From: Candidatus Yanofskybacteria bacterium RIFCSPHIGHO2_01_FULL_43_32
GTDB lineage: Bacteria > Patescibacteriota > Minisyncoccia > 2-02-FULL-40-12 > GWA2-44-9
DNA length: 64,000 nucleotides
Assembly (NCBI GenBank): GCA_001794125.1
Contig: MGJF01000002.1
Location: 37,751-101,750, forward strand
Reading direction: 5' to 3'
The position numbers and the translations under genes are program-made. The notes beneath the pieces were generated by a model, which worked only from the letters and a program-made list of their open reading frames with translations, was not told the origin of the DNA and did no database searches. The stretch's first letter is position 1. Every line of letters starts with the position of its first letter. Shown piece after piece: positions 307 through 56,225 of this stretch.

Positions 307-1263
307 ATGGAAAAAATCCGCAACTTTAAGCTAAAAGATTTTGCCGGTTTCTTTGGAACCACAGTTCAAGATATTCCCGAGGTTTGCCGGAAAATAATAA
401 CAAAAAGTGATTTTCGTTATCGCTTGGTTTCTGCTACGAAACTGACTCAATTAATTCGGGAGATAAATAGAAAAATTGATGGGGATGATTTGTTTGTGGC
501 CGGTAAAAAAGCTAAATCGATTTGGCAAAAGAGGTGGTCTGCTCAGCTTAAAGATTTTGTTGCCAACGACTTCCAAGCTACAGTTTTGGTGCCAAAATAT
601 GTCAAAAAACCGATTAATAATACATATTGCCGGTTTGATCATGGTTTTATTGCTCCATTGGATGAAAATTTTGAATTGAACTGGAAACTGGTTTTGAAAT
701 ACTGGTTATTCGGTAAGTACCTTAAAAATGTGGACCACATTTATGAATTCGGCTGTGGAACGGGGATAAATATGGCGATACTTGCCGATCTGTTTCCGCA
801 AAAAAAATTGCATTGTTCAGACTGGGTAGATTCATCCAAAAAAATAGCTGAGCATATGTCTAAGCAGTATCACTGGAACGTGTCGGGCCATGTTTTTGAT
901 ATGTTTCATCCCGATCCAAAATTTAAAATAGAAAAAAATAGCGCTTTTTTGACTTTTGGCGCTTTGGAGCAAATGGGAACGGGATATGAATCTTTTATAA
1001 ATTTTGCCATAAAAAATAAAATAGATTTATTTGTAAACGTGGAACCAGTAGAAGAATTGCTCGATAAAACCGATTCCTTAGATGCTTTGTCCATCAAGTT
1101 TATTTATAAAAGGAATTATTTAAGAAATTACTTAACTTATCTGCGCCGTTTGCAAACAGAAGGCAAAATAAAAATTCAAAAAGTACAAAGGACTTGTCCT
1201 GGGAGCTTCTATCAGGATCTTTCATATATTGTTTGGCGGCCAATTAAACCTAAGATTAATTGA
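307..1263 (+). CDS. class I SAM-dependent methyltransferase
   Basis: Motif I EFGCGTGINMAILAD (GxGxG Rossmann SAM-binding); start 1 nt after previous stop. Confidence 0.55.
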   Translation: MEKIRNFKLKDFAGFFGTTVQDIPEVCRKIITKSDFRYRLVSATKLTQLIREINRKIDGDDLFVAGKKAKSIWQKRWSAQLKDFVANDFQATVLVPKYVKKPINNTYCRFDHGFIAPLDENFELNWKLVLKYWLFGKYLKNVDHIYEFGCGTGINMAILADLFPQKKLHCSDWVDSSKKIAEHMSKQYHWNVSGHVFDMFHPDPKFKIEKNSAFLTFGALEQMGTGYESFINFAIKNKIDLFVNVEPVEELLDKTDSLDALSIKFIYKRNYLRNYLTYLRRLQTEGKIKIQKVQRTCPGSFYQDLSYIVWRPIKPKIN

Positions 1264-1266: not shown

Positions 1267-2262
1267 ATGATTATAACGAGAACCCCATTTAGAATTTCAT
1301 TTTTCGGAGGTGGTACAGATTACCCTGTTTGGTATGAGAAAAACGGCGGCTCCGTCTTGTCTATGGCCATTGATAAATATAGTTATATCAATTTGCGTTC
1401 TATGCCGCCGTTTTTTAAACATAAATATAAAATCATTTATTCTAAACACGAAGAAGTTAAACATATCAATAAAATAAAACACCCTTCGGCAAGGGAAACG
1501 CTTCGCTATTTAAATATTGATGGAGGTGTGGTAATTCACCACGACGGTGATTTACCGGCCATGTCCGGCCTGGGCTCTAGTTCATCATTTACTGTCGGAC
1601 TCGTCCATGCTTTATCCGGGTTGAAAGGAGAAATAAAAACAAAACGCCAATTGGCGCTGGATGCTATTCATATAGAACAAAATTTAATCAAAGAAAATGT
1701 TGGTTCTCAAGATCAAACTATTGCCGCCTTCGGCGGTCTTAATCGTATAGATTTTGGCGGACCTCAAAAAATTCAAGTTTACCCGATAACTATAAGCAAA
1801 GAAAGAACGGAATTGTTTAAAAGTCATCTCATGCTATTTTTTACTGATTTTACCCGGCAAGCTTCTAAAATAGCTAAACATTGGATAAAAAATACCAAGA
1901 ATAACGGTAATGAACTTAAATCGATAACCAATATGGTTGACGAGGGAGTGGCTATTTTATGCAGTAATCGGAACATAATTGATTTCGGTAAATTGCTTCA
2001 CGAACATTGGTTAATAAAACGTGGGCTGGCTCAAAAAATTTCCAATCCTAAAATAGACGAAATATACAAAATCGGACGGGAAGCGGGAGCTATTGGCGGG
2101 AAGCTACTCGGCGCGGGTGGCGGAGGTTTTATGTTGTTTTTTGCGAAACCGGAGGATCATCCCAAAATAAAAGAAAAATTAAAAAAGTTTTTATATGTGC
2201 CGTTTAACATTGATATGCTTGGAAGCCAGATAATTTATCATAATCTTAATAATAGTTTTTAA
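1267..2262 (+). CDS. GHMP-family sugar kinase, D-glycero-alpha-D-manno-heptose-7-phosphate kinase (HddA/WcbL)-like
   Basis: N-terminus MIITRTPFRISFFGGGTDYPVWYEKNGGSVLSMAIDKY closely matches HddA; GHMP motif PAMSGLGSSSSFTVG; C-terminal GAGGGGF. Confidence 0.7.
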   Translation: MIITRTPFRISFFGGGTDYPVWYEKNGGSVLSMAIDKYSYINLRSMPPFFKHKYKIIYSKHEEVKHINKIKHPSARETLRYLNIDGGVVIHHDGDLPAMSGLGSSSSFTVGLVHALSGLKGEIKTKRQLALDAIHIEQNLIKENVGSQDQTIAAFGGLNRIDFGGPQKIQVYPITISKERTELFKSHLMLFFTDFTRQASKIAKHWIKNTKNNGNELKSITNMVDEGVAILCSNRNIIDFGKLLHEHWLIKRGLAQKISNPKIDEIYKIGREAGAIGGKLLGAGGGGFMLFFAKPEDHPKIKEKLKKFLYVPFNIDMLGSQIIYHNLNNSF

Positions 2263-2265: not shown

Positions 2266-2300
2266 TAACCTACCGTCAGCTTACAGCCGGCGGTAGGTTT
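2266..2300. terminator. hairpin between convergent genes (acctaccg...cggtaggt) with flanking A/T runs
   Basis: 8-bp inverted repeat 2268-2275/2291-2298 between + gene stop 2262 and - gene stop 2299. Confidence 0.3.
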
Positions 2301-2814
2301 AAACACCCCTGTCTCTGTTTGAAAGTATCGGATTAACAACCGGCCACGGAATATTAAATCTTGGGTCGTTCCATCGGACGCTCCACTGGTTTTCTGCTCC
2401 TTTGTAATATTCTGATTGGTTGTAATGAAAAATAGCACCCTTATTACTTAAAACGAGGTGGCCATTCAGGTGTTTCGGCGGAATAAGAATTTGTAAACCA
2501 TTGTCGTCGGTTAAGAAAAACATTTCCCATTTGCCAAAATGACAGGAAAATTGGTCATAATTTACTACCGCCAAACAAAAAGCGCCGAAAGGACAACAAA
2601 TCATTTTGTAAGTTTTGTCGTCTCCATGGAGACCCCTTAGGGTATTTTTCCTAGAAAAGGAAAAATCCTGTTCCACAAAATCAATCGTGATTCCTTTCTT
2701 AAAGTAATCCTCTCTTTGATAAATTGTCGCATAAATCCCGCGGTGATCCCTGAACGGAAATCCTCTGTGTATTTTCAATACTCCAGGTAAAGAAGTTGAA
2801 GAGACCTTGATCAC
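2299..2814 (-). CDS. RmlC-like cupin sugar-nucleotide 3,5-epimerase (dTDP-4-dehydrorhamnose 3,5-epimerase family)
   Basis: RGLHGD motif, IPPKHLNGH and WNDPRFNIPWP align with RmlC RGLH / IPxGFAHGF / WNDPxxxIxWP. Confidence 0.7.
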   Translation of the reverse strand: MIKVSSTSLPGVLKIHRGFPFRDHRGIYATIYQREDYFKKGITIDFVEQDFSFSRKNTLRGLHGDDKTYKMICCPFGAFCLAVVNYDQFSCHFGKWEMFFLTDDNGLQILIPPKHLNGHLVLSNKGAIFHYNQSEYYKGAENQWSVRWNDPRFNIPWPVVNPILSNRDRGV

Positions 2815-2897: not shown

Positions 2898-2926
2898 TTG
2901 ACAACGGGTTCTTTGTTATATATATT
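2898..2926 (+). promoter_or_regulatory. sigma70-like promoter TTGACA-17nt-TATATT upstream of first split transketolase
   Basis: TTGACA 2898-2903, TATATT 2921-2926. It lies inside the ORF-track start at 2926, so the real start is likely ATG 2980. Confidence 0.45.
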
Positions 2927-2979
2927 TGCGCCAATTGAACATTAAAAACAAGGATGGGGGAGTGATAAATAACAACCAC

Positions 2980-3780
2980 ATGGCTAAGCAGGCGAGAATG
3001 GCTCGCCACATGATACTGGATATGATATTTGAAGCAAGATCATCCCATCTTGGCTGCGCTCTTTCCATCGTCGACATACTAACAGCATTATATTTTGGGG
3101 ATATTCTAAAAATTGACCCCAAAAATCCTGATTTGGAAGACAGGGACAAGTTTATTTTGAGCAAAGGCCATGCTTGTGTGGCGTTGTATGCTACTTTGGC
3201 TTTGAAGGGTTATTTTTCATTAGAAAAATTGAAAGAGTATGGAACTGACGGTACTCTGATCGGAGATCACAATACCCGTGGCGCTTTGCCTGGAATCGAA
3301 ACAACCAACGGTTCTCTCGGGCATGGCTTGCCGATTGGTGTCGGGATGGCATTAGCCGCAAAGAAGGCAAAAAGATCGTCAAGAGTCTTTGTTTTGGTCG
3401 GAGATGGTGAGCTTCAGGAAGGTTCAAACTGGGAAGCTTTGATGTTTGCCGGATTCCATAAATTGGACAACTTAACTCTCATTATTGACAATAACAACCT
3501 TGAGACACTCGGACCGACCGACAAAATTCTTAGTTTGGCCGGATTACATGATAAATTAGAAAGTTTCGGATGGGATACGGAAAGCATTTGCGGACATCGC
3601 TTCGCAGAAATTATCGGCCAGCTAAATATGTCTCATGAAAAACCGTTTGCACTAAATTGCCACACAACAAAGGGCAAGGGTGTTCCGTTCATGGAGAATG
3701 ATCATATCTGGCACGGCAAATGTCCGACCAAAGAAGAATATGAGAGAGCCAAAAAAGAATTGAACGGAGGATTGCAATGA
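2980..3780 (+). CDS. transketolase, N-terminal (ThDP-binding) subunit, copy 1
   Basis: SKGHACVALYATLAL, GSLGHGLPIGVGMALA, GDGELQEGSNWEA motifs. Start moved to ATG 2980 (MAKQARMARHMILD) downstream of the promoter. Confidence 0.8.
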   Translation: MAKQARMARHMILDMIFEARSSHLGCALSIVDILTALYFGDILKIDPKNPDLEDRDKFILSKGHACVALYATLALKGYFSLEKLKEYGTDGTLIGDHNTRGALPGIETTNGSLGHGLPIGVGMALAAKKAKRSSRVFVLVGDGELQEGSNWEALMFAGFHKLDNLTLIIDNNNLETLGPTDKILSLAGLHDKLESFGWDTESICGHRFAEIIGQLNMSHEKPFALNCHTTKGKGVPFMENDHIWHGKCPTKEEYERAKKELNGGLQ

Positions 3781-4703
3781 GATTTGAGGTCGTCAAAACG
3801 ATTTACAAGGCTGCGTGTTCCGATTCCAAAGTAGTTTTTCTAACAGGGGATTTGGGCCATGCTCATTTGGATGATTTCAGAAAAAATTTACCCGGCCAGT
3901 ATTATAATATCGGCATTGCTGAGCAAAACATGATAGGTATTGCTGCCGGACTTGCTCTTTCCGGCCACAGAGTGTTTGTTTATTCAATTGCTCCCTTTGT
4001 GACGCTGCGGTGTCTTGAACAAATTAAGGTAGATGTTTGTTATCAAAATGTTGGGGTCGTGGTTGTCGGAGTGGCCGCTGGCTATGCCTATTCAACATGC
4101 GGATGCACTCATCATGCGATTGAAGATGTTGCGGCCATGAAAGCATTGCCGAATATGCAGATATATTCGCCATCCAATTCATTAGAAGCGCGGTTGGTTA
4201 CAGAATATCTAATAAAAACATCGCATCCCGCCTATCTGCGCATCGGTAAAGGCGGGGAATTGAGCGCCGAAAAAGAATATGGCCTTGAAATCGGCAAGGG
4301 GTTAGTCGTTAAGCCTGGCAACGATATAACCATATTCGCCACCGGCACGATTGTAAATGAGGCGGTTGCCGCAAGCAATATTTTGGAGCAACACGGAGTC
4401 AGCGCAGAGGTGATAAATATACACACAATAAAACCCTTGGACAAAGAGCTTGTTGAAAAATCAGCTCAAACCAGAGATGCGGTATTTGTCCTAGAAGAAC
4501 ACAACATCATTGGCGGACTGGGTGAAAGCATCGCAAGAATAATCTGCGAATGTAATGGGAACAAGAAACCAATTTTCAAATGTCTTGGCGTTCCCGACGA
4601 ATACAACCATCGTGCAGGTAGCCACCAGTATATGTTGGGCTGTTATGGATTGAACGCAGAAGCAATTGCCAGACAAATTGTAGAATTATATAAAAAGGCC
4701 TAG
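3777..4703 (+). CDS. transketolase, C-terminal (pyrimidine-binding) subunit, copy 1
   Basis: GIAEQNMIGIAAGLALSGHRVFVYSIAPFVTLRCLEQIK; ATGA overlap with upstream stop. Confidence 0.8.
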   Translation: MRFEVVKTIYKAACSDSKVVFLTGDLGHAHLDDFRKNLPGQYYNIGIAEQNMIGIAAGLALSGHRVFVYSIAPFVTLRCLEQIKVDVCYQNVGVVVVGVAAGYAYSTCGCTHHAIEDVAAMKALPNMQIYSPSNSLEARLVTEYLIKTSHPAYLRIGKGGELSAEKEYGLEIGKGLVVKPGNDITIFATGTIVNEAVAASNILEQHGVSAEVINIHTIKPLDKELVEKSAQTRDAVFVLEEHNIIGGLGESIARIICECNGNKKPIFKCLGVPDEYNHRAGSHQYMLGCYGLNAEAIARQIVELYKKA

Positions 4704-4716
4704 GGGCCTTTTTTCA
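4692..4716 (+). terminator. rho-independent terminator
   Basis: aaaaaggcc-tagg-ggccttttttc perfect hairpin plus T-run overlapping the stop codon. Confidence 0.6.
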
Positions 4717-4775
4717 TTGACAGAAGCCCAAAAAAATACATAATATACACCAAGAACTTTGAAATAAGGAAAAAT

Positions 4776-5576
4776 ATGGATCTCGGTTTAAAAGGAAGAA
4801 CAGCACTCATTACCGGTTCAAGCCAGGGTATCGGCAAGGCATGTGCTATCGCTTTAGCCAGAGAAGGGTGCAATATAATTTTGTGCGCGCGAAATGCTTC
4901 TAAGTTAAGAACAGTTTGTGTGGAAATTGAAGAGATGTATCCCGATATTAATGTAAACTGGGCAACCGTTGACGCAACTTCTCGAGAAAGTGTTAAGAGT
5001 TTTTTAAGTCAGATTCATTCTCTTGATATTTTGGTAAATAATGTCGGCGGCGGAACAGAAAAACCATTAAAACTTTGGGGATTAACCGAGGAACAATGGA
5101 TTGACACGTACAAGTTAAATGCTTTAAGCATGGTGTGGTTTACCGAATTCGCGGTTCCTCTTCTTGAAAAATCTTTACAGCCGAGAGTTATAAATATTGG
5201 AAGCAAAACATCTCATGAGCCGGGATGGAACAATCCCCACTATGGCGCTGCCAAATCAGCCATGGATTATCTGAATAAGCGCATATCCAATGAGTTGGCG
5301 CCTAAAGGAATTTGCGTCAACGTTATCGGTCCCCATGCGCTTATTTGCGACACTTGGGAGAGAGATGTTCGCGACCGCGCGCAAACTCTCGGAATAGCTA
5401 TTCAGAAAGCACGGGCCATTGTGACCAAAGAGGTTGTAAGCAAAATACCAATGGGACGACAAGGCACAGATGAAGATGCGGCTAATTTGGTTGTTTTCCT
5501 GGCTTCTGCTCAAGCTAATTTTATCACCGGTACTTACATTCCCTTAGACGGTGGAGCTACGAGGTCGATTCTTTGA
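4776..5576 (+). CDS. SDR-family oxidoreductase
   Basis: TGSSQGIGKACAIALAREG (TGxxxGIG) Rossmann motif, YxxxK region, AGGAA RBS. Confidence 0.8.
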   Translation: MDLGLKGRTALITGSSQGIGKACAIALAREGCNIILCARNASKLRTVCVEIEEMYPDINVNWATVDATSRESVKSFLSQIHSLDILVNNVGGGTEKPLKLWGLTEEQWIDTYKLNALSMVWFTEFAVPLLEKSLQPRVINIGSKTSHEPGWNNPHYGAAKSAMDYLNKRISNELAPKGICVNVIGPHALICDTWERDVRDRAQTLGIAIQKARAIVTKEVVSKIPMGRQGTDEDAANLVVFLASAQANFITGTYIPLDGGATRSIL

Positions 5577-5601
5577 GGGCTAAGATTTTTAGCCCTTTTT
5601 T
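5575..5601 (+). terminator. rho-independent terminator
   Basis: gggctaa-gattt-ttagccc followed by tttttt. Confidence 0.55.
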
Positions 5602-5645
5602 AAATATTATAAAAATTGAAACTTTAATTTAAAGAATTAGATTAA

Positions 5646-5671
5646 CAAAAAAAAACACGCTGAATGCGTGT
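5646..5671 (-). terminator. rho-independent terminator for minus-strand SDR gene
   Basis: acacgc-tgaat-gcgtgt hairpin with a 9-nt A-run on + (T-run on -). Confidence 0.55.
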
Positions 5672-6453
5672 TATAAAATCTTGCTTTGACCTCCGTCAAT
5701 CACTATTGAGGCGCCGTTTAGCAGTTGGGCTTTGTCTGAACAAATAAATGTTACGACACTTGCCACTTCTTCGGGTAAACCCAGTCGCCCTAATGGGAAA
5801 TTTTCCAGAACAAACTTATTGAATTCTTCCGGATTTTCCCTTTGTTTTCTTTCCAGTCCCGTGTCCGGTATCATTATCTGTCCCGGAGCAACGCTATTGA
5901 ACGTAATTCCGTCTCTTACCAAGTCGTGTTTGATGGCCAGGCTTTTCATAAAACTTATCTGCGCGCTCTTTGCCATGCTGTACCATGGTCTTCCTCCGGC
6001 TTCCCGCCCGCAAATAGAAGATATGGTGACTACCCTGCCCCATTTTTCTTTTCTCATAAGAGGCAGACACCGCATTGTAAATCTGATAGCTGCTGTAACG
6101 TTTTTGTCATATACGTCTTGCCACACCTTTTCGGAAGTTTGCTCAACATCTTCACTGCCCCAGCTTCCGCCTCCGCCTACGTTATTTATCAAAATATGCA
6201 ATTTTCCCCACGTGCCGGTTATAATACTTACCACTCGCTCAATATCTTGCGGGTTTGTTGCGTCAGCGCTTATTCCTATGCCAACAACACCTTTGTTTTC
6301 TATCTCTTTGACCACTTCATCAACCCTTTGTTTGTTTCTCGCACAGATAGCCACGTGACAGCCTTCAGCAGCTAAGGCAAGAGCTATTGCCCGGCCAATC
6401 CCGTGACTGCCACCGGTAACCAATGCGTACTTTCCACTTAGACCCAAGTTCAA
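5671..6453 (-). CDS. SDR-family oxidoreductase (3-oxoacyl-ACP-reductase-like)
   Basis: VTGGSHGIGRAIALALAAEG, NNVGGGG; convergent with the preceding SDR. Confidence 0.8.
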   Translation of the reverse strand: MNLGLSGKYALVTGGSHGIGRAIALALAAEGCHVAICARNKQRVDEVVKEIENKGVVGIGISADATNPQDIERVVSIITGTWGKLHILINNVGGGGSWGSEDVEQTSEKVWQDVYDKNVTAAIRFTMRCLPLMRKEKWGRVVTISSICGREAGGRPWYSMAKSAQISFMKSLAIKHDLVRDGITFNSVAPGQIMIPDTGLERKQRENPEEFNKFVLENFPLGRLGLPEEVASVVTFICSDKAQLLNGASIVIDGGQSKIL

Positions 6454-6557
6454 ATTAGCTCTCCTTCAGTTATTATTTTCAATAAACTGGCCATAGAATA
6501 GAATACTTTTGGTGATTTGTCAAAAAAATGTAAAAAACTCGGCATCTGGTACTGAGC

Positions 6558-6585
6558 TTGATTTACTTCAAAATCATAGTATAAT
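6558..6585 (+). promoter_or_regulatory. sigma70-like promoter TTGATT-16nt-TATAAT (extended TAGTATAAT)
   Basis: Lies inside the ORF-track start 6509, so the real start is ATG 6620. Confidence 0.45.
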
Positions 6586-6619
6586 TTCGACACGCGATCT
6601 TTTAAAACTAGGCCACAAA

Positions 6620-7450
6620 ATGAATATAGACAAATTAAGCAAGAAGGCGAAATGGATCAGAAGCAGAGCCCTGGAAATGTGCATCAATGCCGGCAAGGGC
6701 CATCTTGGCGGCGCATTTTCCTGTACCGAAATTCTTGTCGCTCTTTACTATGGCGGTATTTTGAACATATCGCCCCTCTCAAAAAACAACTCCGACAGAG
6801 ACAGGCTGATATTCAGCAAGGGCCATGCCATGCTGGCTCTCTATGTAATTCTTGGAGATTTAGGATTTTTTGACGCCAAAGAATTGGAAGCCTACGGTAA
6901 AAATGGAACAATGCTCGGCGATCACCCTGATCACATGATACCCGGAATAGAAATCGCTTCCGGATCATTAGGCCATGGCTTAAGTGTTGCCTGCGGTCTT
7001 GCACTGTCTGCAAAAATGAACAACAAAAATTTTCTGACAGTGGCAATCTTGGGTGATGCTGAATGCAACGAGGGCTCCGTTTGGGAGGCAGCAACATTCG
7101 GTTGCAACTCCAAATTAAACAATTTGGTAGCAGTCGTAGACAACAACAGAATAGGCGCCACAGATTTTACGGAAAATTTTTCCGGTTCAATGCCGATGGA
7201 AAATAAATGGCAAGCATTCGGATGGCAGACGGTAAAAATTGACGGCCATAGTTTCAGAGATATCTTGTCTGGTTTTGAAAGAGCCAAGCAGTCAACGGAC
7301 AGACCCACGGCTATTATAGCCGAAACTATAAAAGGTAAAGGTATTTCATTCATGGAAAATAAATCTAATTGGCATCACGGCGCGCCCAAAGGCGAATTGG
7401 CCATTAAGGCCCGGCAAGAACTTGCAGACGGAGATAAAAATGGAAACTAA
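6620..7450 (+). CDS. transketolase, N-terminal subunit, copy 2 (paralog of 2980-3780)
   Basis: FSKGHAMLALYVILG, GSLGHGLSVACGLALSA, GDAECNEGSVWEA. Confidence 0.8.
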   Translation: MNIDKLSKKAKWIRSRALEMCINAGKGHLGGAFSCTEILVALYYGGILNISPLSKNNSDRDRLIFSKGHAMLALYVILGDLGFFDAKELEAYGKNGTMLGDHPDHMIPGIEIASGSLGHGLSVACGLALSAKMNNKNFLTVAILGDAECNEGSVWEAATFGCNSKLNNLVAVVDNNRIGATDFTENFSGSMPMENKWQAFGWQTVKIDGHSFRDILSGFERAKQSTDRPTAIIAETIKGKGISFMENKSNWHHGAPKGELAIKARQELADGDKNGN

Positions 7451-8387
7451 AAATTATACCGATTTGCGGGACGCTTTTTTTGAGGAGTTATATCTTCTGG
7501 CTTCGGCTGACAGCAATGTGGTTTTAATATACGGCGACCAGGGAGCTCAAACTTTCAAAAAATTCCAGCAAACCATACCTGGTCAAATAATTAACGGCGG
7601 AATCGCGGAACAAAATTTGATAGGTGTTGCGGCTGGCTTGGCCTTAGGCGGCAAAAAAGTTTTTGTCCACGCAATTGCCCCGTTCATTACCTTGAGATGT
7701 TATGAACAAATAAAAGTTGATCTGGGTTTAATGGGTCTTCCTGTTACCTTAGTGGGGATTGGAGCGGGGTACTCTTACGGCGACGCCGGACCCACACACC
7801 ATGCCGTTCAAGACCTGTCAATTTTGCGGGCAATTTCTGGAATGACAATCTTTAACGCATCCGATACTGTTAGCCTATCCCGTTTTGTTAAAATTGCTTA
7901 CGGGAACATTAAAGGACCTGTTTATATCCGATTTGATAAAGATAGTCCCTCTCAAATTTATACGGAAAAAGAAAGTTTTTGCGCAGGTTTGGCGAAAATA
8001 AGAAGCGGAAAAGATATAATTATTATTTCAACCGGTTTAATGGTTCACAGGGCCTTAGCAGTTGCGGATAAATTAAACTCATTGGGAATTGATGCCGGAG
8101 TAATTGATGTATATCGCATCAAACCGCTTAATTCTGTTTTGCTGGCAGAAGTCCTGGCCGGCTGTCAAAGGATTGTCGCCCTTGAAGAACACAGCCCTAT
8201 CGGCGGCCTTGGTTCGCTGATAAGCGAATTCATTTGCGATTCCGGATTGTCTACCGTTTCTCTGAAAAGAATCGCTCTTGAAGATAGCGATTGCTTTACT
8301 TACGGTACGCGTGAATATGTTCATACCCGAATTGGCTTAGACAAGGACACGCTTGTTGCCAGAATACGTGAGTGGCTCGTTTTATAA
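7440..8387 (+). CDS. transketolase, C-terminal subunit, copy 2
   Basis: GIAEQNLIGVAAGLALGGKKVFVHAIAPFITLRCYEQIK; start at ATG 7440 with GGAGA RBS, 11-nt overlap with upstream. Confidence 0.8.
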   Translation: METKNYTDLRDAFFEELYLLASADSNVVLIYGDQGAQTFKKFQQTIPGQIINGGIAEQNLIGVAAGLALGGKKVFVHAIAPFITLRCYEQIKVDLGLMGLPVTLVGIGAGYSYGDAGPTHHAVQDLSILRAISGMTIFNASDTVSLSRFVKIAYGNIKGPVYIRFDKDSPSQIYTEKESFCAGLAKIRSGKDIIIISTGLMVHRALAVADKLNSLGIDAGVIDVYRIKPLNSVLLAEVLAGCQRIVALEEHSPIGGLGSLISEFICDSGLSTVSLKRIALEDSDCFTYGTREYVHTRIGLDKDTLVARIREWLVL

Positions 8388-8412
8388 CCCATGTCAAACA
8401 TGGGTTTTTATT
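8386..8412 (+). terminator. rho-independent terminator
   Basis: aacccatg-tcaaa-catgggtt then tttta. Confidence 0.55.
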
Positions 8413-8439
8413 GACTTTGGTGTGGTTTAAATTATAATC

Positions 8440-9243
8440 ATGGAAACAAGTTTTCGTTCTTTTATTAACAAGGTAGCTAAAGTGGCAGAGAGAAAAATCA
8501 ATGTTGAAACCAAAGAAACAAACAAAGAAAAACAAAATGTTCAAAAATTAGTTACCCTTCTTCGAGAATGTCCAATCCCCAACGAGCAGGTATTGTCTAA
8601 TTTGGGTCTTTTTCTGACCTCTAAAGAATTGGCAAGAATTTTGTTTGTGGATTTTATTTACCGCCAGGCCATAGAAGTTCAGGGTATTATTGTTGAATTT
8701 GGCACTCGTTGGGGTAATAACTTGGCGATTTTTGAAGCCCTAAGAGGAATTTATGAGCCGTTCAACAAGTTAAAACAAATAATTGGCTTTGACACTTTCG
8801 AAGGATTTCCTCATGTGTCGTCAGAGGATGGAAATTCAAACCCCCTTGTCTCTGTGGGAAATTTATCATGCACCGTAAATTACCCTGATTACTTAGACCG
8901 GATAATGAAGTGCCACGAGGAAAGCAACCCGCTTAGTTATATAAAAAAATATAAAATCAGGGTTGGCGATGTCACTAAAGAAATAGACCGATATCTAAAA
9001 GATAATCCGGAAACAATTATTGCTTTGGCATTTTTTGACCTTGATTTGTATAGACCAACCAAGAAGTGTCTCGAAGCCATAAGATCACATCTTGTAAGAG
9101 GCAGTATCTTGGCTTTTGATGAATTAAATGACCACAACTGGCCAGGAGAAACCATTGCTCTTAAGGAAGTGTTCGGTCTAAATAATATTAGACTCAAGAG
9201 GCATCCGCAAGCATCCAGAGTCTCTTACTTTGCAGTAGAGTGA
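8440..9243 (+). CDS. TylF/MycF-family (macrocin O-methyltransferase-like) sugar O-methyltransferase
   Basis: GIIVEFGTRWG ... FDTFEGFP parallels TylF GDIVECGVxRGGS ... DSFEGLP. Confidence 0.55.
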   Translation: METSFRSFINKVAKVAERKINVETKETNKEKQNVQKLVTLLRECPIPNEQVLSNLGLFLTSKELARILFVDFIYRQAIEVQGIIVEFGTRWGNNLAIFEALRGIYEPFNKLKQIIGFDTFEGFPHVSSEDGNSNPLVSVGNLSCTVNYPDYLDRIMKCHEESNPLSYIKKYKIRVGDVTKEIDRYLKDNPETIIALAFFDLDLYRPTKKCLEAIRSHLVRGSILAFDELNDHNWPGETIALKEVFGLNNIRLKRHPQASRVSYFAVE

Positions 9244-9252
9244 TACCAAAAT

Positions 9253-9280
9253 CCGCCCTGAAGGGCGGTTTAATTTTTTG
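9253..9280 (+). terminator. rho-independent terminator
   Basis: ccgccct-ga-agggcgg then tttaatttttt. Confidence 0.6.
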
Positions 9281-9362
9281 TTTCATAAATATGGAACAAC
9301 TTGACTGATTTCAATTTTTTCTGTTAAATAGAGCAACAAGGAATCTTGCAAGGGAGGTAACA

Positions 9363-10325
9363 ATGCAGAAAGATTTAGAGCTTGAACTTTACCAATCGAT
9401 GTACCGAATGCGTGCCGCAGAGCGGGCCATTCAGCAAGAATATCCGAACAATCAAATGAAGACCCCGATGCATATGTCCATAGGAGAAGAAGGAATCGTT
9501 GCGGGCATTTGTACTGCCCTGAAGGAAAAGGCAAAATTCTACGGAACTTACCGTAGTCATGCACTTTACCTGGCTGTCACGGAAGAAACAGATGGTTTTT
9601 TTGCCGAGTTGTACGGTAAAGTTACAGGTCCAGCCGGTGGAAAGGCAGGCTCAATGCATTTGGCATCTCCTGATCACAATCTGATAATGACATCCGCCGT
9701 TGTCGGAACAACTATTCCGGTTGCAGTCGGCGGAGCATTCAGAGAAAAATACATGAATACGGACAAGATTGCCGTTGTGTTTTTTGGCGACGGCGCCGTA
9801 GATGAAGGCGTGTTTTGGGAAAGCTTGAATCTTGCCTGCTTGTGGAAATTACCGGTGCTGTTTGTCTGCGAAGATAACGGTCTGGCAATCCACACACCCA
9901 CATCTGTGAGGCGCGGATATGATTCGTTGGGAAAAATTGCCAGGCAATATAATTGTTTGGTCTATGATTCTTTTGAGCAAACCGATGTTTTGACTATTCA
10001 TGCTATGGCAAAAAAAGCTTATGCAGAGATTCAACGTTTCAGGATGCCTGCTTTGGCGATTATTCCTTACTATCGTTATTTGGAACATGTCGGTGTTAAT
10101 GAAGATTTTGATGTGGGATATCGTTCATGTGATGAGTTCGAACAATGGCTCGCGAAAGATCCAATAGCGCTTTTACGACGAAGGCTAATTAACCAGAACC
10201 AGGAAAATGCAGTAGTTTCAATTGAAGATGCAGTCAACAAACAGATTTTTATAAGTGTCCAAAAAGCAAAAGATGCACCATTCCCAAGACCCGAAGAACT
10301 TTACAGGGGGGTATACGGTGAGTAA
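9363..10325 (+). CDS. ThDP-dependent dehydrogenase E1 component, alpha subunit (PDH/acetoin-DH E1 alpha family)
   Basis: YRSHALYLA, GDGAVDEGVFWESLNLACLWKLPVLFVCEDNGLAIHT (ThDP motif), GGGAGG RBS. Confidence 0.8.
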   Translation: MQKDLELELYQSMYRMRAAERAIQQEYPNNQMKTPMHMSIGEEGIVAGICTALKEKAKFYGTYRSHALYLAVTEETDGFFAELYGKVTGPAGGKAGSMHLASPDHNLIMTSAVVGTTIPVAVGGAFREKYMNTDKIAVVFFGDGAVDEGVFWESLNLACLWKLPVLFVCEDNGLAIHTPTSVRRGYDSLGKIARQYNCLVYDSFEQTDVLTIHAMAKKAYAEIQRFRMPALAIIPYYRYLEHVGVNEDFDVGYRSCDEFEQWLAKDPIALLRRRLINQNQENAVVSIEDAVNKQIFISVQKAKDAPFPRPEELYRGVYGE

Positions 10326-11364
10326 GCGTATCATTACTTACGCTCAAGCGATTAACGAAGCTCTCCGGCAAGAAATGGAACGTGATTCAAGTGTCTTTGT
10401 TTATGGACTGGATGTCGCAGACCACAAAGGCATCAATGGAACAACGTCGGGACTAGCGGAAAAATTTCCGGGACGCTGTTTGAGTACGCCCCTATCAGAA
10501 GAAGCTTTGATGGGATTTGGTCTTGGTGCAGCTATCAATGGTCTGCGTCCGGTTAATGTTCATATTCGTGTTGAATTCTTACTTGTGGCTTTCAACCAGT
10601 TGGTAAATATGCTCGCCTCGGCCCGTTACGGTTCCAATGGTAAACTGTCCGTTCCAATTGTCATCAGAGTGTTGATTGGTCGCGGTTGGGGACAGGGATT
10701 CCAGCATTCAAAAAGCTTGCAAAGTATTTTTGCCCATATTCCCGGACTAAAAGTTATTATGCCGGCTACGCCATATGATGCTAAAGGTATGCTCATCGCC
10801 GCTATCCGCGACGATAATCCTGTTATTTGCATGGAACATCGGTTCCTGTTTTGGCAGGAAGGCGAAGTGCCTTTTGAGCCATACACCGTTCCTTTGGGCA
10901 AGTGCTCAATTCTTCGTTCCGGGTCGGACGTTACGATAGTGGCCAGCTCCTGGTCATGCGTTGACGCACTTGACGCGGCTAAAGTATTGGAGCGGAAACA
11001 CAATATTTTGGCCGAACTGATAAATGTGCGAACTATTGCACCCTTTGATGATGCAACAGTGAATCAATCTGTACGGAAAACCGGCCACTGTATTGTCGTG
11101 GATAGTGACTGGACTCATTGTGGGTTTTCCGCCGAAGTGGCAGCTCGTGTGCAGGAAGATTGTTTCGGCTCGTTGAGATCGCCTGTTACCCGAATCGGTT
11201 TTGCGCCGACTCATTGTCCGACAACCAGGCCTATGGAAGACCTGTATTATCCGAATGCGGAAACAATTATTCGGGTTACCGAAAAGAAGCTTGGCCTGAA
11301 GCCGGCCGATTTATCCGATGAAAAGTTCCACAATTACGAGAATAAGTTTAAGGGACCGTTCTAA
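10318..11364 (+). CDS. ThDP-dependent dehydrogenase E1 component, beta subunit (transketolase-like)
   Basis: ITYAQAINEALRQEMERDSSVFVYG...GLAEKFPGRCLSTPLSEEALMGFGLGAA; GTG start overlapping the alpha-subunit stop. Confidence 0.75.
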   Translation: MSKRIITYAQAINEALRQEMERDSSVFVYGLDVADHKGINGTTSGLAEKFPGRCLSTPLSEEALMGFGLGAAINGLRPVNVHIRVEFLLVAFNQLVNMLASARYGSNGKLSVPIVIRVLIGRGWGQGFQHSKSLQSIFAHIPGLKVIMPATPYDAKGMLIAAIRDDNPVICMEHRFLFWQEGEVPFEPYTVPLGKCSILRSGSDVTIVASSWSCVDALDAAKVLERKHNILAELINVRTIAPFDDATVNQSVRKTGHCIVVDSDWTHCGFSAEVAARVQEDCFGSLRSPVTRIGFAPTHCPTTRPMEDLYYPNAETIIRVTEKKLGLKPADLSDEKFHNYENKFKGPF

Positions 11365-11390
11365 AACCACCATTTGACAGGTGGTTTTTT
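11364..11390 (+). terminator. rho-independent terminator
   Basis: aaaccacc-atttgaca-ggtggtttttt. Confidence 0.55.
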
Positions 11391-11462: not shown

Positions 11463-12659
11463 TTGGCTGACTATCCCGGCTATCATATAAAATATTATCT
11501 GGCTGAAGATACAATTGATGCTAATGATTTAAGCGCTCTGGCCGATTGGTTGAAAACCAATCCGAGAATAACTATGGGGCCTTTAACCAAGGAGTTTGAG
11601 GCAAAATGGAGCAGTTGGCTGGGACAAAAGTATTCAATTTACTGTAATTCGGGTTCTTCTGCCAATCTGCTTATGTATGCGGCTCTGGCTGCTTTGGGGC
11701 GACTATCCAATAGGATGATTATTGTGCCAAGTGTCGGCTGGGTAACTACTATAGCTCCGGCTATTCAGTTTGGTTGGGAACCAATTATGTGTGAAGCTGA
11801 TCCGGATACTTTTGGACTGGATCTCAATCATCTTGAAGTACTCTTGCGGAGACACAATCCCAGTACGGTAATTATGGTTCAGGTCTTGGGTGTGCCTCAT
11901 AAAATGAACGAATTACTGGAACTGAAAAAACGATACGGATTTTTCTTATTGGAAGATACTTGCGCTGCTATGGGTTCAAGTTATCACGGTCAACATGTTG
12001 GCACCTTCGGCGATATGAGCAGTTTTTCACTTTTCTTCGGCCATCAAATATCAACCATTGAAGGCGGATTGGTCTCAACCAACAATGAAGAGCTTTATAA
12101 TCTAATGCTTATGATTAGAAGCCATGGCTGGACTAAAGACTTAGACACTGAAAAGAAAGAGGCTCTGTTGGCAAAACATAAGGTTGACAGCTTTCATCAC
12201 CCATTCCTATTTGTGCTGGACGGTTTTAATTTAAGACCGACTGATGACCACGCCTTTCTCGGAATTAAACAAATAGACAAAATGGAATGGCTTATCAAGC
12301 GCCGGATGGAAAATCATCTGCTTTATAAAGCAATTCTTGGCAAGTATTTCTGTGTTCAGAAATACGAACCGGATTCGGTCGTGTGCAGTATTTCCTTTGG
12401 CATGTTGGCAAGCAGTGTTGCTGAAAGAAAAAAGATAATTGAAGCTTGCCGTCGAGAAGGTATCGAAACTAGAATGTTTTCGGCAGGTAACCTGGGTCTG
12501 CATCCTTTCTGGTATGAAAGATACGGTAAATTTTCCGCTCCTATGGCCGACAGAATTCATCATTGCGGTTTGTTTCTGCCCAATAATCCGTCACTTAAAA
12601 CAAAGGATATAGAATTTATATCCAGTGTAGTATTAAACGCTACCAAGGAGGCTCAATGA
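11463..12659 (+). CDS. colD: PMP-dependent GDP-4-keto-6-deoxy-D-mannose 3-dehydratase (ColD/E1-type sugar 3-deoxygenase)
   Basis: GTFGDMSSFSLFFGHQISTIEGG...IRSHGWTKDL matches ColD GTFGLMGTFSSFYSHHIATMEGG...IRAHGWTRNL. A His replaces the Schiff-base Lys of DegT aminotransferases; ORF track implies a non-ATG (TTG) start. Confidence 0.75.
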   Translation: MADYPGYHIKYYLAEDTIDANDLSALADWLKTNPRITMGPLTKEFEAKWSSWLGQKYSIYCNSGSSANLLMYAALAALGRLSNRMIIVPSVGWVTTIAPAIQFGWEPIMCEADPDTFGLDLNHLEVLLRRHNPSTVIMVQVLGVPHKMNELLELKKRYGFFLLEDTCAAMGSSYHGQHVGTFGDMSSFSLFFGHQISTIEGGLVSTNNEELYNLMLMIRSHGWTKDLDTEKKEALLAKHKVDSFHHPFLFVLDGFNLRPTDDHAFLGIKQIDKMEWLIKRRMENHLLYKAILGKYFCVQKYEPDSVVCSISFGMLASSVAERKKIIEACRREGIETRMFSAGNLGLHPFWYERYGKFSAPMADRIHHCGLFLPNNPSLKTKDIEFISSVVLNATKEAQ

Positions 12660-13591
12660 GCAGAATTCTTGTAACCGGCGGAGCGGGATATATCGGTTCC
12701 GTTTTGGTGCCGATGCTTTTGAGCGCCGGCCACGAAGTTATCGTTTTAGATAATTTTATGTACAGACAGGGTTCTCTGCTTGATTGTTGCAATAACAAAA
12801 GACTGGCCATCATTCGAGGTGATACAAGAGATGAGAAATTAATAGACCGGATCTTTAAAAACCATCCAATTGAATATGTTCTCCCCCTTGCGGCCATAGT
12901 AGGAGCCCCGGCCTGTGACCAAGATCCCACGACATCCATTACAACCAATGTGGGTGGAGTGGTGGAAGTATCTCGAAGATGGACCACGAAAATAATTTTT
13001 CCGAATACCAACAGTGGTTACGGCATTGGCCAAGAGAGCATGTACTGCACAGAAGAGAGTCCCCTCAATCCGATTTCTCTTTATGGCCGCCAGAAGGTTG
13101 AAGCAGAAAGGTCGGTATTAGAAGGCGGTAACGCAATCGTATTGCGCTTAGCCACCGTATTTGGAGTAAGTCCCAGAATGCGTTTGGACCTTTTGGTTAA
13201 CGACTTTGTATATCGGGCCGTAACCGACAGATGTGTTACCTTATTTGAAGCGCACTTTAAGAGAAATTATATTCATGTCAGGGATGTGTCCAGAGCTTTT
13301 ATCCATTGTATGAATAATTTTGAGTCAATGAAAAACCAGACCTACAATGTCGGCTTAAGCGATGCCAACTTGTCTAAAAAAGAGTTGTGCCAAGAGATAC
13401 AGAAACAAATACCTGAATTTTATTTTCATGAAGCAGAAATAGGCGAAGATCCTGACAAGAGAAACTACATCGTTAGCAATGCCAAGATCGAAGCTACCGG
13501 CTTCAAACCACGGATCTCATTGCAAGAAGGGATAGCCGAATTAATTAAGGGTTTTCAAATCATAAGACGAGACCAGTTTACAAATTTGTAA
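12656..13591 (+). CDS. NAD(P)-dependent epimerase/dehydratase (extended SDR), probable ketosugar 4-reductase/epimerase
   Basis: ILVTGGAGYIGSVLVPMLLSAGHEVIVLDNF; ATGA overlap with colD. Confidence 0.65.
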   Translation: MSRILVTGGAGYIGSVLVPMLLSAGHEVIVLDNFMYRQGSLLDCCNNKRLAIIRGDTRDEKLIDRIFKNHPIEYVLPLAAIVGAPACDQDPTTSITTNVGGVVEVSRRWTTKIIFPNTNSGYGIGQESMYCTEESPLNPISLYGRQKVEAERSVLEGGNAIVLRLATVFGVSPRMRLDLLVNDFVYRAVTDRCVTLFEAHFKRNYIHVRDVSRAFIHCMNNFESMKNQTYNVGLSDANLSKKELCQEIQKQIPEFYFHEAEIGEDPDKRNYIVSNAKIEATGFKPRISLQEGIAELIKGFQIIRRDQFTNL

Positions 13592-13616: not shown

Positions 13617-13706
13617 TTTCCAATATCGACGCAATCAGCTGATGGACAAATCTAAACTTTTATGTTATCAAATTGAGAACACCGCACCTTGTCAATAAGG
13701 AACAAA

Positions 13707-14696
13707 ATGAAAGCCATAAAAGTTTTGATTACAGGAATTTCTGGTTCCGGAGCAAGTTATTTAGCTGAATATATTGTTAATAACCATCCAGAAGTAGAAC
13801 TTCACGGCACTTTTCGCTCAAATAGCTCTCGCTCTCAAAAAAATATTCAAGAAATTGCAAACAAACTGTTTCTTCACGACTGCGACTTAGATGATTATAC
13901 CGTCACGCACCAATTGATTGCCGGACTTAAACCGGACATTGTTTTCCACATCGCTTCTTATGCCAACGTAAGAGAGTCCTGGGACAAGCCGGTCTTTACT
14001 CTGCAGAACAATATAATCAGCACAGCCAATCTGTTGGAAGCAATCCGATCGGCCGCCGGTATACACCCCCGGATCCAAATGTGCAGCACACCGGAAGTAT
14101 ACGGCCAAGTAGATCCCAAGAACATTCCAATCGATGAAAGCTGTCCCATTAACCCAAACAATCCCTATGCCGTATCCAAATTTGCACAGGAATCGTTGGG
14201 GTACTCTTATTTCAAGGGTTTTGGCTTGCCCGTGATTATTACTCGCATGTCTACCTATCTCAATCCGAGGCGGGCGGATCTTTTTGCCACAGCATTCGCA
14301 ATGCAAGTGGCGCGGATTGAAGCTGGTTTACAGAAAGAATTACGGCACGGCAACCTTGATTCTACCAGAACGATTCTTGATCCCAGGGACTGCGCCAGTG
14401 CTTATTGGGCCGCCATAGAAAAAGGCGAGTCCGGAGAGGTCTATAATATCGGCGGAAATACAGTGGTAACGGTTGGGGAATTTTTGGAAGTACTTAAAAT
14501 AAAAGCCCGACGAACGATTCCCTCTATAGCCGACAAGAGTTTATTTAGACCCGCAGACATCACTCTACAAATCATAAATTCCGGAAAATTTTCCAAGCAA
14601 ACCGGCTGGCAGCCAAAATATAGTTTTGAGGAAAGCGTCGAATACTTACTGGGGCATTGCCGCCGAACAGTTCAAGAGGAGTTGGCAAGCCGGTGA
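13707..14696 (+). CDS. gmd: GDP-mannose 4,6-dehydratase family
   Basis: LITGISGSGASYLAEYI / HGTFRSNSS / YAVSKFAQESLGYSY...RMSTYLNPRR track Gmd LITGVTGQDGSYLAEFL / HGIKRRASS / YAVAKLYAYW...NHESPRR; start at ATG 13707 with AAGGAA RBS. Confidence 0.75.
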   Translation: MKAIKVLITGISGSGASYLAEYIVNNHPEVELHGTFRSNSSRSQKNIQEIANKLFLHDCDLDDYTVTHQLIAGLKPDIVFHIASYANVRESWDKPVFTLQNNIISTANLLEAIRSAAGIHPRIQMCSTPEVYGQVDPKNIPIDESCPINPNNPYAVSKFAQESLGYSYFKGFGLPVIITRMSTYLNPRRADLFATAFAMQVARIEAGLQKELRHGNLDSTRTILDPRDCASAYWAAIEKGESGEVYNIGGNTVVTVGEFLEVLKIKARRTIPSIADKSLFRPADITLQIINSGKFSKQTGWQPKYSFEESVEYLLGHCRRTVQEELASR

Positions 14697-25247: not shown

Positions 25248-25971
25248 GCCAAAAATATTAGCATATATTCCTGCTCGAGGCGGATCAAAAAGAATACCGG
25301 GCAAAAATATAAAGAAGTTTGCCGGTAAGCCTCTCATTGCTTACACTATTGAGCAGGCTTTAGCATGCAAGCTTGCGGACAAAATCGTAGTTGATACTGA
25401 CTCCAAAGAAATAGCAAAAATTGCAAAAGAGCATGGGGCAGAAGTTTCCTTTTTGCGTCCAGCTAAACTGGCTCAAGACAAATCAATGATTATAGATAGT
25501 ATAATCTATACTCTTGACCGACTTGAAAAAGAACAGAATTACAAACCCACTCATCTGTTAATCCTTCAAACCACTTCCCCTTTGCGTGAACTAAAGGACA
25601 TAATGGATTGTTGGAAATTAATGCAGTCAACGAATGCAACCACAGTATTAACTGTCTGCCCAACTCATCCTTGTTTTTACCACATGAAAGAGAATAAAGA
25701 CATTACCATTGTTAATGGAAACGAGGGTATATCTACAAATATGCAGGCTTGGCCGGAAGGATATATTTTGAATGGCTGTTTTGTCTATATTGTTGATATT
25801 CCCACACTAAGAAAAGAACGTCGTGTTATCACTGCCAAGACCAAGGCGGTCGTCTGTCCCAAATGGCGATCCGCTGACCTTGATACGCCGGAAGAATGGG
25901 TAATGGCTGAAGTTTTGTATAAGAATAAAAAGAAAATAGAAAAACAAATAAAAAAACATGAATCGAAATAA
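25234..25971 (+). CDS. CMP-nonulosonic acid synthetase (acylneuraminate cytidylyltransferase NeuA/LegF family)
   Basis: ILAYIPARGGSKRIPGKNIKKFAGKPLIAYTIEQA signature of CMP-NeuAc/Leg synthetases. Confidence 0.75.
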   Translation: MKNLKPKILAYIPARGGSKRIPGKNIKKFAGKPLIAYTIEQALACKLADKIVVDTDSKEIAKIAKEHGAEVSFLRPAKLAQDKSMIIDSIIYTLDRLEKEQNYKPTHLLILQTTSPLRELKDIMDCWKLMQSTNATTVLTVCPTHPCFYHMKENKDITIVNGNEGISTNMQAWPEGYILNGCFVYIVDIPTLRKERRVITAKTKAVVCPKWRSADLDTPEEWVMAEVLYKNKKKIEKQIKKHESK

Positions 25972-29177: not shown

Positions 29178-29278
29178 AAAAGAAAGGTGTTTTTGCGCAA
29201 TAAATAAATAATTAGTCAATGATGACATCTATTAAAAAACATGTTAAAAATAAGCAGCTTTTTAATAAGGGCCCTGAC

Positions 29279-32184: not shown

Positions 32185-32190
32185 CACAGA

Positions 32191-53813: not shown

Positions 53814-53828
53814 AAAAAGTGAGGTATA

Positions 53829-56222: not shown

Positions 56223-56225
56223 TCC

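Follow-up and report, generated by a model that had tools for sequence, protein, structure and literature searches.

Two split transketolases and an E1 alpha/beta pair in a GDP-heptose locus of Candidatus Yanofskybacteria: candidate enzymes for the C-branching of surface sugars

Thiamine diphosphate (ThDP)-dependent enzymes that attach two-carbon (C2) branches to ketones of nucleoside diphosphate (NDP)-activated keto-sugars are established in two forms, the YerE-like lyases known from lipopolysaccharide and the E1 alpha/beta pairs known from antibiotics, while a transketolase (TK) version is only proposed: a 2025 review presents split-gene TKs as uncharacterised candidates represented by 13 sequences, all from Streptomycetes (PMC12247030). 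Here, we describe a stretch of 64,000 nucleotides (the window; positions 37,751 to 101,750 of contig MGJF01000002.1) in which two split TKs and an E1 pair lie close together among GDP-heptose genes. The host is a Candidatus Yanofskybacteria, a groundwater bacterium with a tiny genome, of the candidate phyla radiation (CPR)/Patescibacteria lineage, and this part of the contig is a surface-glycan locus of at least 55 kb, of which about 45 kb lie inside the window and 10 kb or more upstream of it. On balance, we lean slightly towards reading the region as the tailoring core of a GDP-heptose pathway, in which the three ThDP enzymes would attach C2 units to GDP-4-keto-heptoses that are then reduced and methylated.

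In the biosynthesis of yersiniose A by YerE and YerF, for the O-antigen of Yersinia pseudotuberculosis, a ThDP enzyme puts a C2 unit on a nucleotide-activated 3,6-dideoxy-4-keto sugar at its C4 ketone (PMC12247030). As proposed for the window, a 4,6-dehydratase and a 3-dehydratase make the acceptor, a reductase acts on the branch and the product belongs to a cell-surface glycan (PMC12247030). YerE is, however, a single-chain enzyme of the decarboxylase (acetolactate synthase-like) superfamily acting on a CDP-hexose, whereas the window combines two-subunit TK and E1 enzymes with GDP-heptose in a CPR host, and no YerE-type single-chain protein (TPP_enzyme_N/M/C) was found among the genes called in the locus. 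The alpha-KADH2 E1 pairs of the aldgamycin, kibdelomycin (KbDH) and kosinostatin clusters are, like the pair of the window, heteromeric E1 enzymes without E2 or E3 in a sugar-tailoring cluster; they take pyruvate as donor and leave a C-acetyl branch on an NDP-keto-sugar (PMC12247030), and the window pair may follow the same chemistry. The likeness is one of gene set and context, and those pairs belong to actinomycete secondary metabolism and TDP-hexoses, whereas the window pair belongs to surface-glycan loci. The split TKs of miharamycin and amipurimycin biosynthesis are also encoded by separate TK-N and TK-C genes in a sugar-tailoring cluster, which again is a likeness of gene organisation.

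The sugar-modifying genes around the ThDP enzymes strongly resemble the GDP-heptose toolkit of Campylobacter jejuni, with the same enzyme set (Cj1427, a 4,6-dehydratase, C3/C5 epimerases, a C3-dehydratase and C4-reductases). The enzymes and intermediates of that toolkit are biochemically defined and no ThDP enzyme is part of it, the word "transketolase" being absent from the paper (PMC10680097); its products are unbranched heptoses, unlike the branched sugar proposed for the window. In the literature searched, no role for a TK was described in heptose, capsule or O-antigen loci or in the biosynthesis of caryose, caryophyllose or bradyrhizose, and a 2026 paper lists a TK-N/TK-C pair of an Actinoplanes exopolysaccharide cluster by domain name, with no function. 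This agrees with the original prediction, made from the letters of the window, that the combination is not described as a pathway. What would be new here are enzyme types not previously shown for C-branching in surface-glycan pathways, acting on a heptose scaffold.

Sequence and distribution of the split transketolases

The open reading frame listing and Pfam scans placed two split TK pairs, two classical short-chain dehydrogenases/reductases (SDRs), an NDP-sugar O-methyltransferase and the E1 pair between positions 2980 and 11364 of the window:

2980..3780, plus strand: TK-N1, ThDP-binding subunit (Transketolase_N 1.6e-44; PDB 6YAK, E=1e-61)
3777..4703, plus strand: TK-C1, pyrimidine-binding and C-terminal subunit (Transket_pyr 4.9e-24, Transketolase_C 2.6e-27; 6YAJ, E=5e-56)
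4776..5576, plus strand: SDR1, classical SDR ketoreductase, putative partner of TK1 (adh_short 4.5e-39)
5671..6453, minus strand: SDR2, classical SDR ketoreductase, putative partner of TK2 (adh_short_C2 1.6e-50)
6620..7450, plus strand: TK-N2, ThDP-binding subunit (Transketolase_N 6.3e-38)
7422..8387, plus strand, with 7422, 7440 or 7464 as start: TK-C2 (Pfam match; 6YAJ, E=1.4e-41)
8440..9243, plus strand, alternative start 8482: CalS11-like NDP-sugar O-methyltransferase (PDB 4GF5, a TDP-rhamnose 3'-O-methyltransferase, E=2.8e-67)
9363..10325, plus strand: E1 alpha, ThDP-binding (E1_dh 5.8e-46; 248 bits against a pyruvate dehydrogenase (PDH) E1 alpha cutoff of 394)
10318..11364, plus strand, alternative starts 10255 and 10273: E1 beta (Transket_pyr 1.4e-31, Transketolase_C 1.7e-29; 284 bits against a cutoff of 321)

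The original prediction had named all these genes at essentially these coordinates, and all of them stood with strong domain statistics. The two TK pairs share 40% identity in their N subunits and 37% in their C subunits, and by this divergence they are old paralogues and not recent copies; TK-C1 and TK-C2 also fall in separate clades of a neighbour-joining tree.

We examined the active-site residues in 82 TK-N sequences and in 240 TK-C relatives, 120 of TK-C1 and 120 of TK-C2. Positions are given in the numbering of the Escherichia coli TK, mapped through the sequence of the split TK of Carboxydothermus hydrogenoformans, with the well-known motif HDS...GEDGPTHQ as the anchor of the map. Results showed that TK-N1 has His26, His66, His100, the GDG motif, Asn185 and His261, and that TK-N2 keeps the catalytic His residues with GDA in place of GDG; His26, His66, His100, Asp155, Asn185 and His261 are each conserved in 75-82 of the 82 TK-N sequences. 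Both C subunits retain Arg358, Glu411 and His473, which are present in 239 (Arg358) or all (Glu411, His473) of the 240 relatives. On the contrary, Ser385 is replaced by Gly and Arg520 by Lys in both, His461 by Ala in TK-C1 and Gly in TK-C2, and Asp469 by Cys in TK-C1 and Ala in TK-C2. Among the 240 relatives, Gly stands at position 385 in 208 and at position 461 in 229, His is found at 461 in none, and position 520 is Lys or Arg throughout; Asp469 is absent from all 120 relatives of TK-C1.

In characterised TKs the aldose phosphate is held by Ser385, His461, Asp469 and Arg520, a canonical set that TK-C1 and TK-C2 do not have. The Carboxydothermus enzyme (6YAK/6YAJ), a bona fide TK, retains all four, although it is the closest solved structure for the three window subunits searched (TK-N1, TK-C1 and TK-C2; E=1e-61 to 1e-41) and has the same alpha2beta2 split architecture (PMC7661550). 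Therefore the cofactor-binding and catalytic residues of the window TKs are intact while the acceptor site, as far as residues can tell, is changed. The presence of both His100 and His473 speaks for a ketol, a hydroxylated donor, and against pyruvate; the 1-deoxy-D-xylulose 5-phosphate (DXP) synthases have Phe at position 100 (PMC7661550). The NCBIfam TK model NF004559 gives 231 + 175 bits for the subunits of TK1 and 258 + 180 bits for those of TK2, in both cases under its cutoff of 488, which is set for a full-length protein, and neither TK looks like a housekeeping enzyme.

A scan with a family-specific motif, using one genome per species, gave hits to the non-canonical TK-C in no fewer than 590 species genomes, which belong to CPR, Chloroflexota, Elusimicrobiota, Omnitrophota, Planctomycetota, Proteobacteria, Firmicutes, Actinobacteria, cyanobacteria and archaea. 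Candidate carriers in culture are Paenibacillus validus NBRC 15382, Agathobaculum desmolans ATCC 43058 and Actinotalea lenta. Thus the family differs from the Streptomycete TKs in its spread over many phyla and in its occurrence in glycan rather than antibiotic loci. We then fetched 80 of these loci (loci are given below by our L numbers), where the TK adjoins Gmd-like dehydratases in 39 and DegT proteins in 31. In the window, in L009-L013 and in most of the 80 loci, TK-N and TK-C are separate genes of an NDP-sugar tailoring cluster beside an enzyme that forms a keto-sugar. When the 80 loci were taken together with eight fetched earlier, 24 of 42 DegT homologues carried His in place of the Schiff-base Lys (in motifs such as FYPAHHITMGEGG), which marks those 24 as sugar 3-dehydratases and not aminotransferases. 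Such 3-dehydratases yield the classical 3,6-dideoxy-4-keto acceptor of YerE (PMC12247030).

The two clades differ in their surroundings. Nearly all TK2-clade members with enough flanking DNA have an HddA-like kinase, and most also have a Cj1427-like gene or an E1 pair. One recurrent TK2 cassette, in Desulfobacterota, Omnitrophota and others, contains TK-N2, TK-C2, a Cj1427-like gene (58-65% identity to that of the window), an aldo-keto reductase (AKR; 41-48%), an HddA-like kinase (53-62%), the methyltransferase MT318 and a cupin. Another consists of a Gmd-like gene, E1 alpha, E1 beta, TK-N2, TK-C2, MT318, AKR, a CalS11-like methyltransferase, a cupin and the kinase, in some cases with GmhA/GmhB/HddC, and was seen in Microgenomates (L012), Chloroflexi (L017), Dehalococcoidia (L097) and L104. 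In the Dehalococcoidia metagenome-assembled genome (MAG), moreover, a TK-C2-type subunit is fused to an MT318-related methyltransferase in a single protein of 639 amino acids (L097:11864-13783), which links the two functions. In the TK1 clade, Patescibacteria loci have the gene order TK, E1 alpha, E1 beta, His-type DegT, reductase, and in further loci an epimerase gene comes first, followed by TK and a His-type DegT. Most TK1-type loci showed no detectable gene of the heptose pathway.

The two SDRs, which are 35% identical to each other, follow the TKs in related loci. The order TK-N1, TK-C1, SDR1 is conserved in L098 and L099, and L099, whose E1 beta is 93% identical to that of the window, has TK-N2, TK-C2 and SDR2 co-directional on the minus strand (L099:3612-8910), as a mirror image of TK-N1, TK-C1, SDR1. 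Compared with L099, the window has its TK2 pair inverted relative to SDR2 and the CalS11-like methyltransferase gene added. These conserved modules suggest a separate ketoreductase for each TK.

The E1 pair, the GDP-heptose genes and further tailoring enzymes

Relatives of E1 beta with 63-71% identity are numerous and come from various phyla, and all contexts inspected were sugar loci, where the pair usually comes right after a Gmd-like dehydratase and together with heptose genes. A Gmd-like gene (42-45% identity to that of the window) lies directly upstream of E1 alpha in L012, L096, L097 and L104. A metagenome scan for E1 beta yielded mostly generic E1 proteins and so served as negative control: relatives with at least 59% identity in E1 beta (50-84% in E1 alpha) were confined to heptose or sugar loci, while the generic proteins, with 41-51% in E1 beta and at most 35% in E1 alpha, had no sugar genes nearby. 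Taken by itself, E1 alpha has 42-84% identity to its relatives in sugar loci. The clade was seen in six loci, five of them labelled (the CPR groups Patescibacteria and Microgenomates, the Chloroflexota lineages Dehalococcoidia and that of a Chloroflexi MAG, and Elusimicrobia), and goes together with GDP-heptose genes in all but one, the Patescibacteria locus L010, which shows none. Among the Pfam-called genes of about 64 kb (from -10 kb to about +54.7 kb relative to the window), there was no E2, E3 or lipoyl domain. The E1 pair is thus, by identity and context, a sugar-locus-specific clade apart from the generic 2-oxoacid dehydrogenase E1. The original prediction had asked for the clade membership of TK and E1, and both group with sugar loci and not with housekeeping TK or PDH.

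The ThDP genes are flanked by the genes of the sugar backbone:

1267..2262, plus strand: GHMP kinase, HddA-like, candidate heptose-7-phosphate 1-kinase (GHMP_kinases_N/_C; HddA 132 bits against a cutoff of 600)
2299..2814, minus strand: cupin 3,5-epimerase of the GDP-4-keto-heptose type (C. jejuni epimerases are the closest solved structures)
11463..12659, plus strand: ColD-type sugar 3-dehydratase (DegT), dependent on pyridoxal or pyridoxamine phosphate (PDB 2GMS, ColD, E=4.6e-57)
12656..13591, plus strand: Cj1427-like GDP-heptose C4-dehydrogenase, an extended SDR of 311 amino acids (PDB 6VO6/6VO8, E=7.1e-112 over 308 residues)
13689..14696, plus strand: Gmd-like GDP-heptose/mannose 4,6-dehydratase (best solved relative is the GDP-heptose 4,6-dehydratase 7US5)
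14657..15652, plus strand: Fcl-like extended SDR, keto-reductase (GDP-L-fucose synthase 133 bits, under cutoff; GDP-fucose synthases in PDB, E=2e-23)

The neighbours that had been named from the letters (HddA-like kinase, RmlC-like epimerase, ColD-like DegT, Gmd-like and Fcl-like enzymes) are therefore all present. Relatives of the kinase have 46-62% identity in TK2-type loci and 48-66% in the E1 loci L017, L096, L097, L100 and L101, and they adjoin an NTP_transferase in L029, L053 and L096. For the cupin, the C. jejuni epimerases, among which are 7M14 and 8DB5, deposited as GDP-D-glycero-4-keto-D-lyxo-heptose 3,5-epimerases, outscore the true dTDP RmlC. The catalytic His188 of ColD aligns with the His of FFGHQISTIEGG in the DegT protein, where aminotransferases have Lys. 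We take PDB 6VO6 to be the C4-dehydrogenase Cj1427 from the deposited molecule name; homologues of the window gene (58-64% identity) directly follow TK-C2 in L015, L048, L053 and L070.

We also looked for the early heptose genes, as the original prediction had suggested for gmhA, gmhB and hddC upstream. A GmhA homologue was found on the minus strand about 2.0-2.6 kb ahead of the first letter of the window (L001:3587-4189), with 165 bits against a cutoff of 276 for its best family. HddC and GmhB, which both flank the kinase in related loci, gave no tblastn hit from -10 kb to +64 kb with neighbours taken from related loci as queries. By homology, then, the sugar backbone is GDP-heptose, and the enzymes of the locus are expected to be able to make GDP-4-keto-heptose, GDP-6-deoxy-4-keto-heptose and GDP-3-deoxy- or 3,6-dideoxy-4-keto-heptose.

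Further reductases and methyltransferases surround this core:

307..1263, plus strand: MT318, S-adenosylmethionine (SAM)-dependent methyltransferase (weak Pfam methyltransferase matches, no confident family)
15745..16695, plus strand: AKR (Aldo_ket_red 3.4e-57)
16801..18954, plus strand: B12-binding radical SAM enzyme, like C-methyltransferases of the KedN5 family (NF033712 232 bits, under cutoff; Pfam)
18994..20292, minus strand: second B12-binding radical SAM enzyme (Radical_SAM 3e-18 and a B12-binding domain)

The methyltransferase at 8440-9243 had been called TylF-like, which proved imprecise: it has no match to TylF (PF05711) and only a weak one to Methyltransf_24 (E=0.0013), and considering its likeness to CalS11, "NDP-sugar O-methyltransferase" is the better label. 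Its homologues have 52-62% identity in L012, L017, L097 and L104. Those of MT318 (34-44%) recur in the TK2-type heptose loci L012, L048, L053, L070 and L104, and those of the AKR have 41-48% identity in loci of the TK2/Cj1427 type and 74-76% in L098 and L099. Similar B12 radical SAM enzymes are found in the TK/heptose loci L013, L050 and L096, and the pair in the window suggests C-methylation or rearrangement of a sugar.

Proposed C-branching and competing explanations

In the pathway that we slightly favour, the acceptors of all three ThDP enzymes would be the ketones of GDP-4-keto-heptoses. To prepare these, the Cj1427-like dehydrogenase would oxidise C4, the Gmd-like enzyme would carry out the 4,6-dehydration and the ColD-type dehydratase the 3-deoxygenation, and the cupin epimerase could invert C3/C5. 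Each split TK would take a ThDP-bound glycolaldehyde (C2 ketol) from a ketose phosphate or from hydroxypyruvate and place it on the carbonyl of the sugar, which would become a tertiary alcohol bearing a hydroxyacetyl branch, while the E1 pair would decarboxylate pyruvate and add the ThDP-bound hydroxyethyl unit, an acetaldehyde equivalent, giving an acetyl branch. The branch ketones would then be reduced by SDR1, SDR2 and the AKR, while the CalS11-like O-methyltransferase, MT318 and the B12 radical SAM enzymes would methylate the product. Such a route would yield one or several C-branched heptoses with at least nine carbons, which may also be 3,6-dideoxy sugars. The three couplings could take place on one sugar in sequence or on separate pools, and a hint of the former comes from the cassettes that combine E1 and TK2 with only one keto-forming enzyme. 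Beyond homology, this chemistry is drawn from genomic context and from precedent. C-branching was one of two readings in the original prediction and, applied to a heptose, is the one best supported by context; of the other, a modified deoxyheptose with TKs supplying its C7 backbone, the GDP-heptose backbone with 4-keto and 3,6-dideoxy-4-keto routes held up, and the supply of C7 as sedoheptulose-7-phosphate did not.

A bolder form of this proposal is that the non-canonical split TKs are widespread nucleotide-sugar C-glycolyl (hydroxyacetyl) transferases that, together with the E1 pair, build a multiply C-branched C9-C13 sugar on GDP-heptose; we regard it as tentative, with the chances rather against it.

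Several observations weigh against C-branching as we propose it. TKs normally favour aldehyde acceptors, and transfer to a ketone by the TK group is read from analogy with the miharamycin and amipurimycin relatives, whose reaction is itself a proposal. Asp469, although lost in the TK-C2 of the window, is present in 98 of its 120 relatives, and the retained Arg358 and the basic residue at 520 would still allow a phosphate-bearing substrate. The stretch from -10 kb to +64 kb, in which neither hddC nor gmhB was found, does not encode the full nucleotide-sugar route. The cassettes of L012 and L097, which have E1 and TK2 with one keto-forming enzyme, are not explained by one branch per sugar. Moreover, the 3,5-epimerase and the Fcl-like C4-reductase would need a free C4 ketone, which clashes with a C4 branch on the same molecule; the clash would be resolved if the two act earlier or on another pool.

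The preference of TKs for aldehydes leads to another explanation, in which they add the ketol to an aldehyde, for instance one at C6 or C7 of a GDP-hexose or GDP-heptose that has been oxidised, so that linear octuloses or nonuloses arise and are reduced by the SDRs and the AKR. TKs naturally accept aldehydes, the donor-side and catalytic residues are all canonical, and the locus has both an AKR and a UDP-glucose-dehydrogenase-like gene. However, no enzyme known to release a sugar aldehyde adjoins the TKs, and their recurrent neighbours (4,6-dehydratases, 3-dehydratases and the Cj1427-like dehydrogenase) make a C4 ketone, so that we consider such chain extension unlikely. Less likely still is that one or both TKs make sedoheptulose-7-phosphate for GmhA and HddA, as the original prediction had suggested. 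The GmhA and the HddA-like kinase close by, the retained Arg358 and Lys/Arg520 and the reduced central metabolism of CPR genomes would fit such a supply. What weakens it most is that Ser385 and His461 are replaced in both C subunits, and Asp469 too in both window proteins, that the family also occurs in Nostoc, Prochlorococcus, Paenibacillus, Desulfobacterota and others, those named having a canonical TK of their own, and that most TK1-type loci show no detectable heptose-pathway genes. The summed subunit scores (about 406-437 bits) also fall short of the NCBIfam TK cutoff of 488, one TK2-type protein is fused to a methyltransferase, and two divergent paralogues, each with its own reductase, would be superfluous for precursor supply.

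The remaining explanations seem to us very improbable. The ThDP-bound C2 units made by E1, TK or both could be oxidised and the resulting acetyl or glycolyl groups used to acylate the glycan, and TK-like and E1-like routes to glycolyl-acyl carrier protein (ACP) are part of quinocarcin and naphthyridinomycin biosynthesis; yet no lipoyl-E2, ACP or acyltransferase partner was found in the same 64 kb or in the related cassettes, which leaves this reading little room. Even less room is left for a housekeeping TK and PDH E1 that lie in the glycan locus by chance. The automatic database names ("transketolase", "DXP synthase", "alpha-ketoacid dehydrogenase subunit beta") would speak for it, but the synteny with sugar genes is conserved across phyla, the E1 relatives split cleanly, the acceptor residues of the TKs are changed and no E2/E3 was found in those 64 kb.

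The locus and its relatives indicate that TK-type and E1-type enzymes are common in surface-glycan loci of many phyla, in association with 4-keto, 3-deoxy-4-keto and heptose intermediates. If C-branching by TKs is true, glycolyl transfer to a ketone would be a new reaction among tertiary-alcohol-forming enzymes, and unknown branched higher-carbon sugars would be predicted in environmental bacteria; a C9-C13 product would be a sugar class without a described structure or pathway on the surface of an ultra-small bacterium. As GDP-heptose substrates are already enzymatically accessible, the locus is a concrete and testable entry point.

Gene layout and the rest of the glycan locus

Within the core, the start of TK-C1 (3777) overlaps the stop of TK-N1 (3780), and SDR1 on the plus strand and SDR2 on the minus strand face each other. 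Terminator-like hairpins lie 3' of SDR1, SDR2, TK-C2, the methyltransferase and E1 beta. Each TK pair had been predicted to have its own promoter, and a sigma-70-like pair of hexamers indeed precedes each:

2898..2926, plus strand: promoter-like site before TK-N1 (TTGACA-17-TATATT, 11/12 matches to the sigma-70 consensus)
6558-6585: promoter-like site before TK-N2 (10/12 matches to the sigma-70 consensus)

Both are consensus matches only, 26 such sites being observed against 18.8 +/- 4.1 expected, and the promoters of this lineage itself are uncharacterised. We also aligned the intergenic regions 5' of the two TK pairs in search of a shared regulatory element, and the alignment was unconvincing.

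The wider locus contains glycosyltransferases, an ABC exporter, a Wzx-type flippase, a Bac_transf initiating transferase and the UDP-glucose-dehydrogenase-like gene mentioned above, so that a CPR organism devotes at least 55 kb to an elaborate glycan. Its GC content is about 36-44%, compared with 47-51% in the downstream housekeeping genes (SecA, iPGM and others; window 48000-60000), and this step is consistent with a distinct composition of the glycan locus. At 21595-25247, one open reading frame of 905 amino acids joins a pyruvate-kinase barrel, PUA_2, ATP sulfurylase and adenosine 5'-phosphosulfate (APS) kinase, with a sulfotransferase directly 3' of it; this fusion for the synthesis of 3'-phosphoadenosine 5'-phosphosulfate (PAPS) and the adjoining sulfotransferase imply a sulfated glycan whose PAPS supply is encoded in the locus. 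Genes of a nonulosonic-acid pathway follow at 25234-33162 (CTP_transf_3, GFO oxidoreductases, NeuB, Epimerase_2, a formyl transferase, a DegT aminotransferase and a Polysacc_synt_2 dehydratase), which suggests that the same glycan may carry an N-formylated acid of the legionaminic or pseudaminic type. Finally, a pyruvoyl-dependent arginine decarboxylase gene (PvlArgDC, 39925-40467, minus strand) lies between glycosyltransferase genes and the gene of the initiating transferase.

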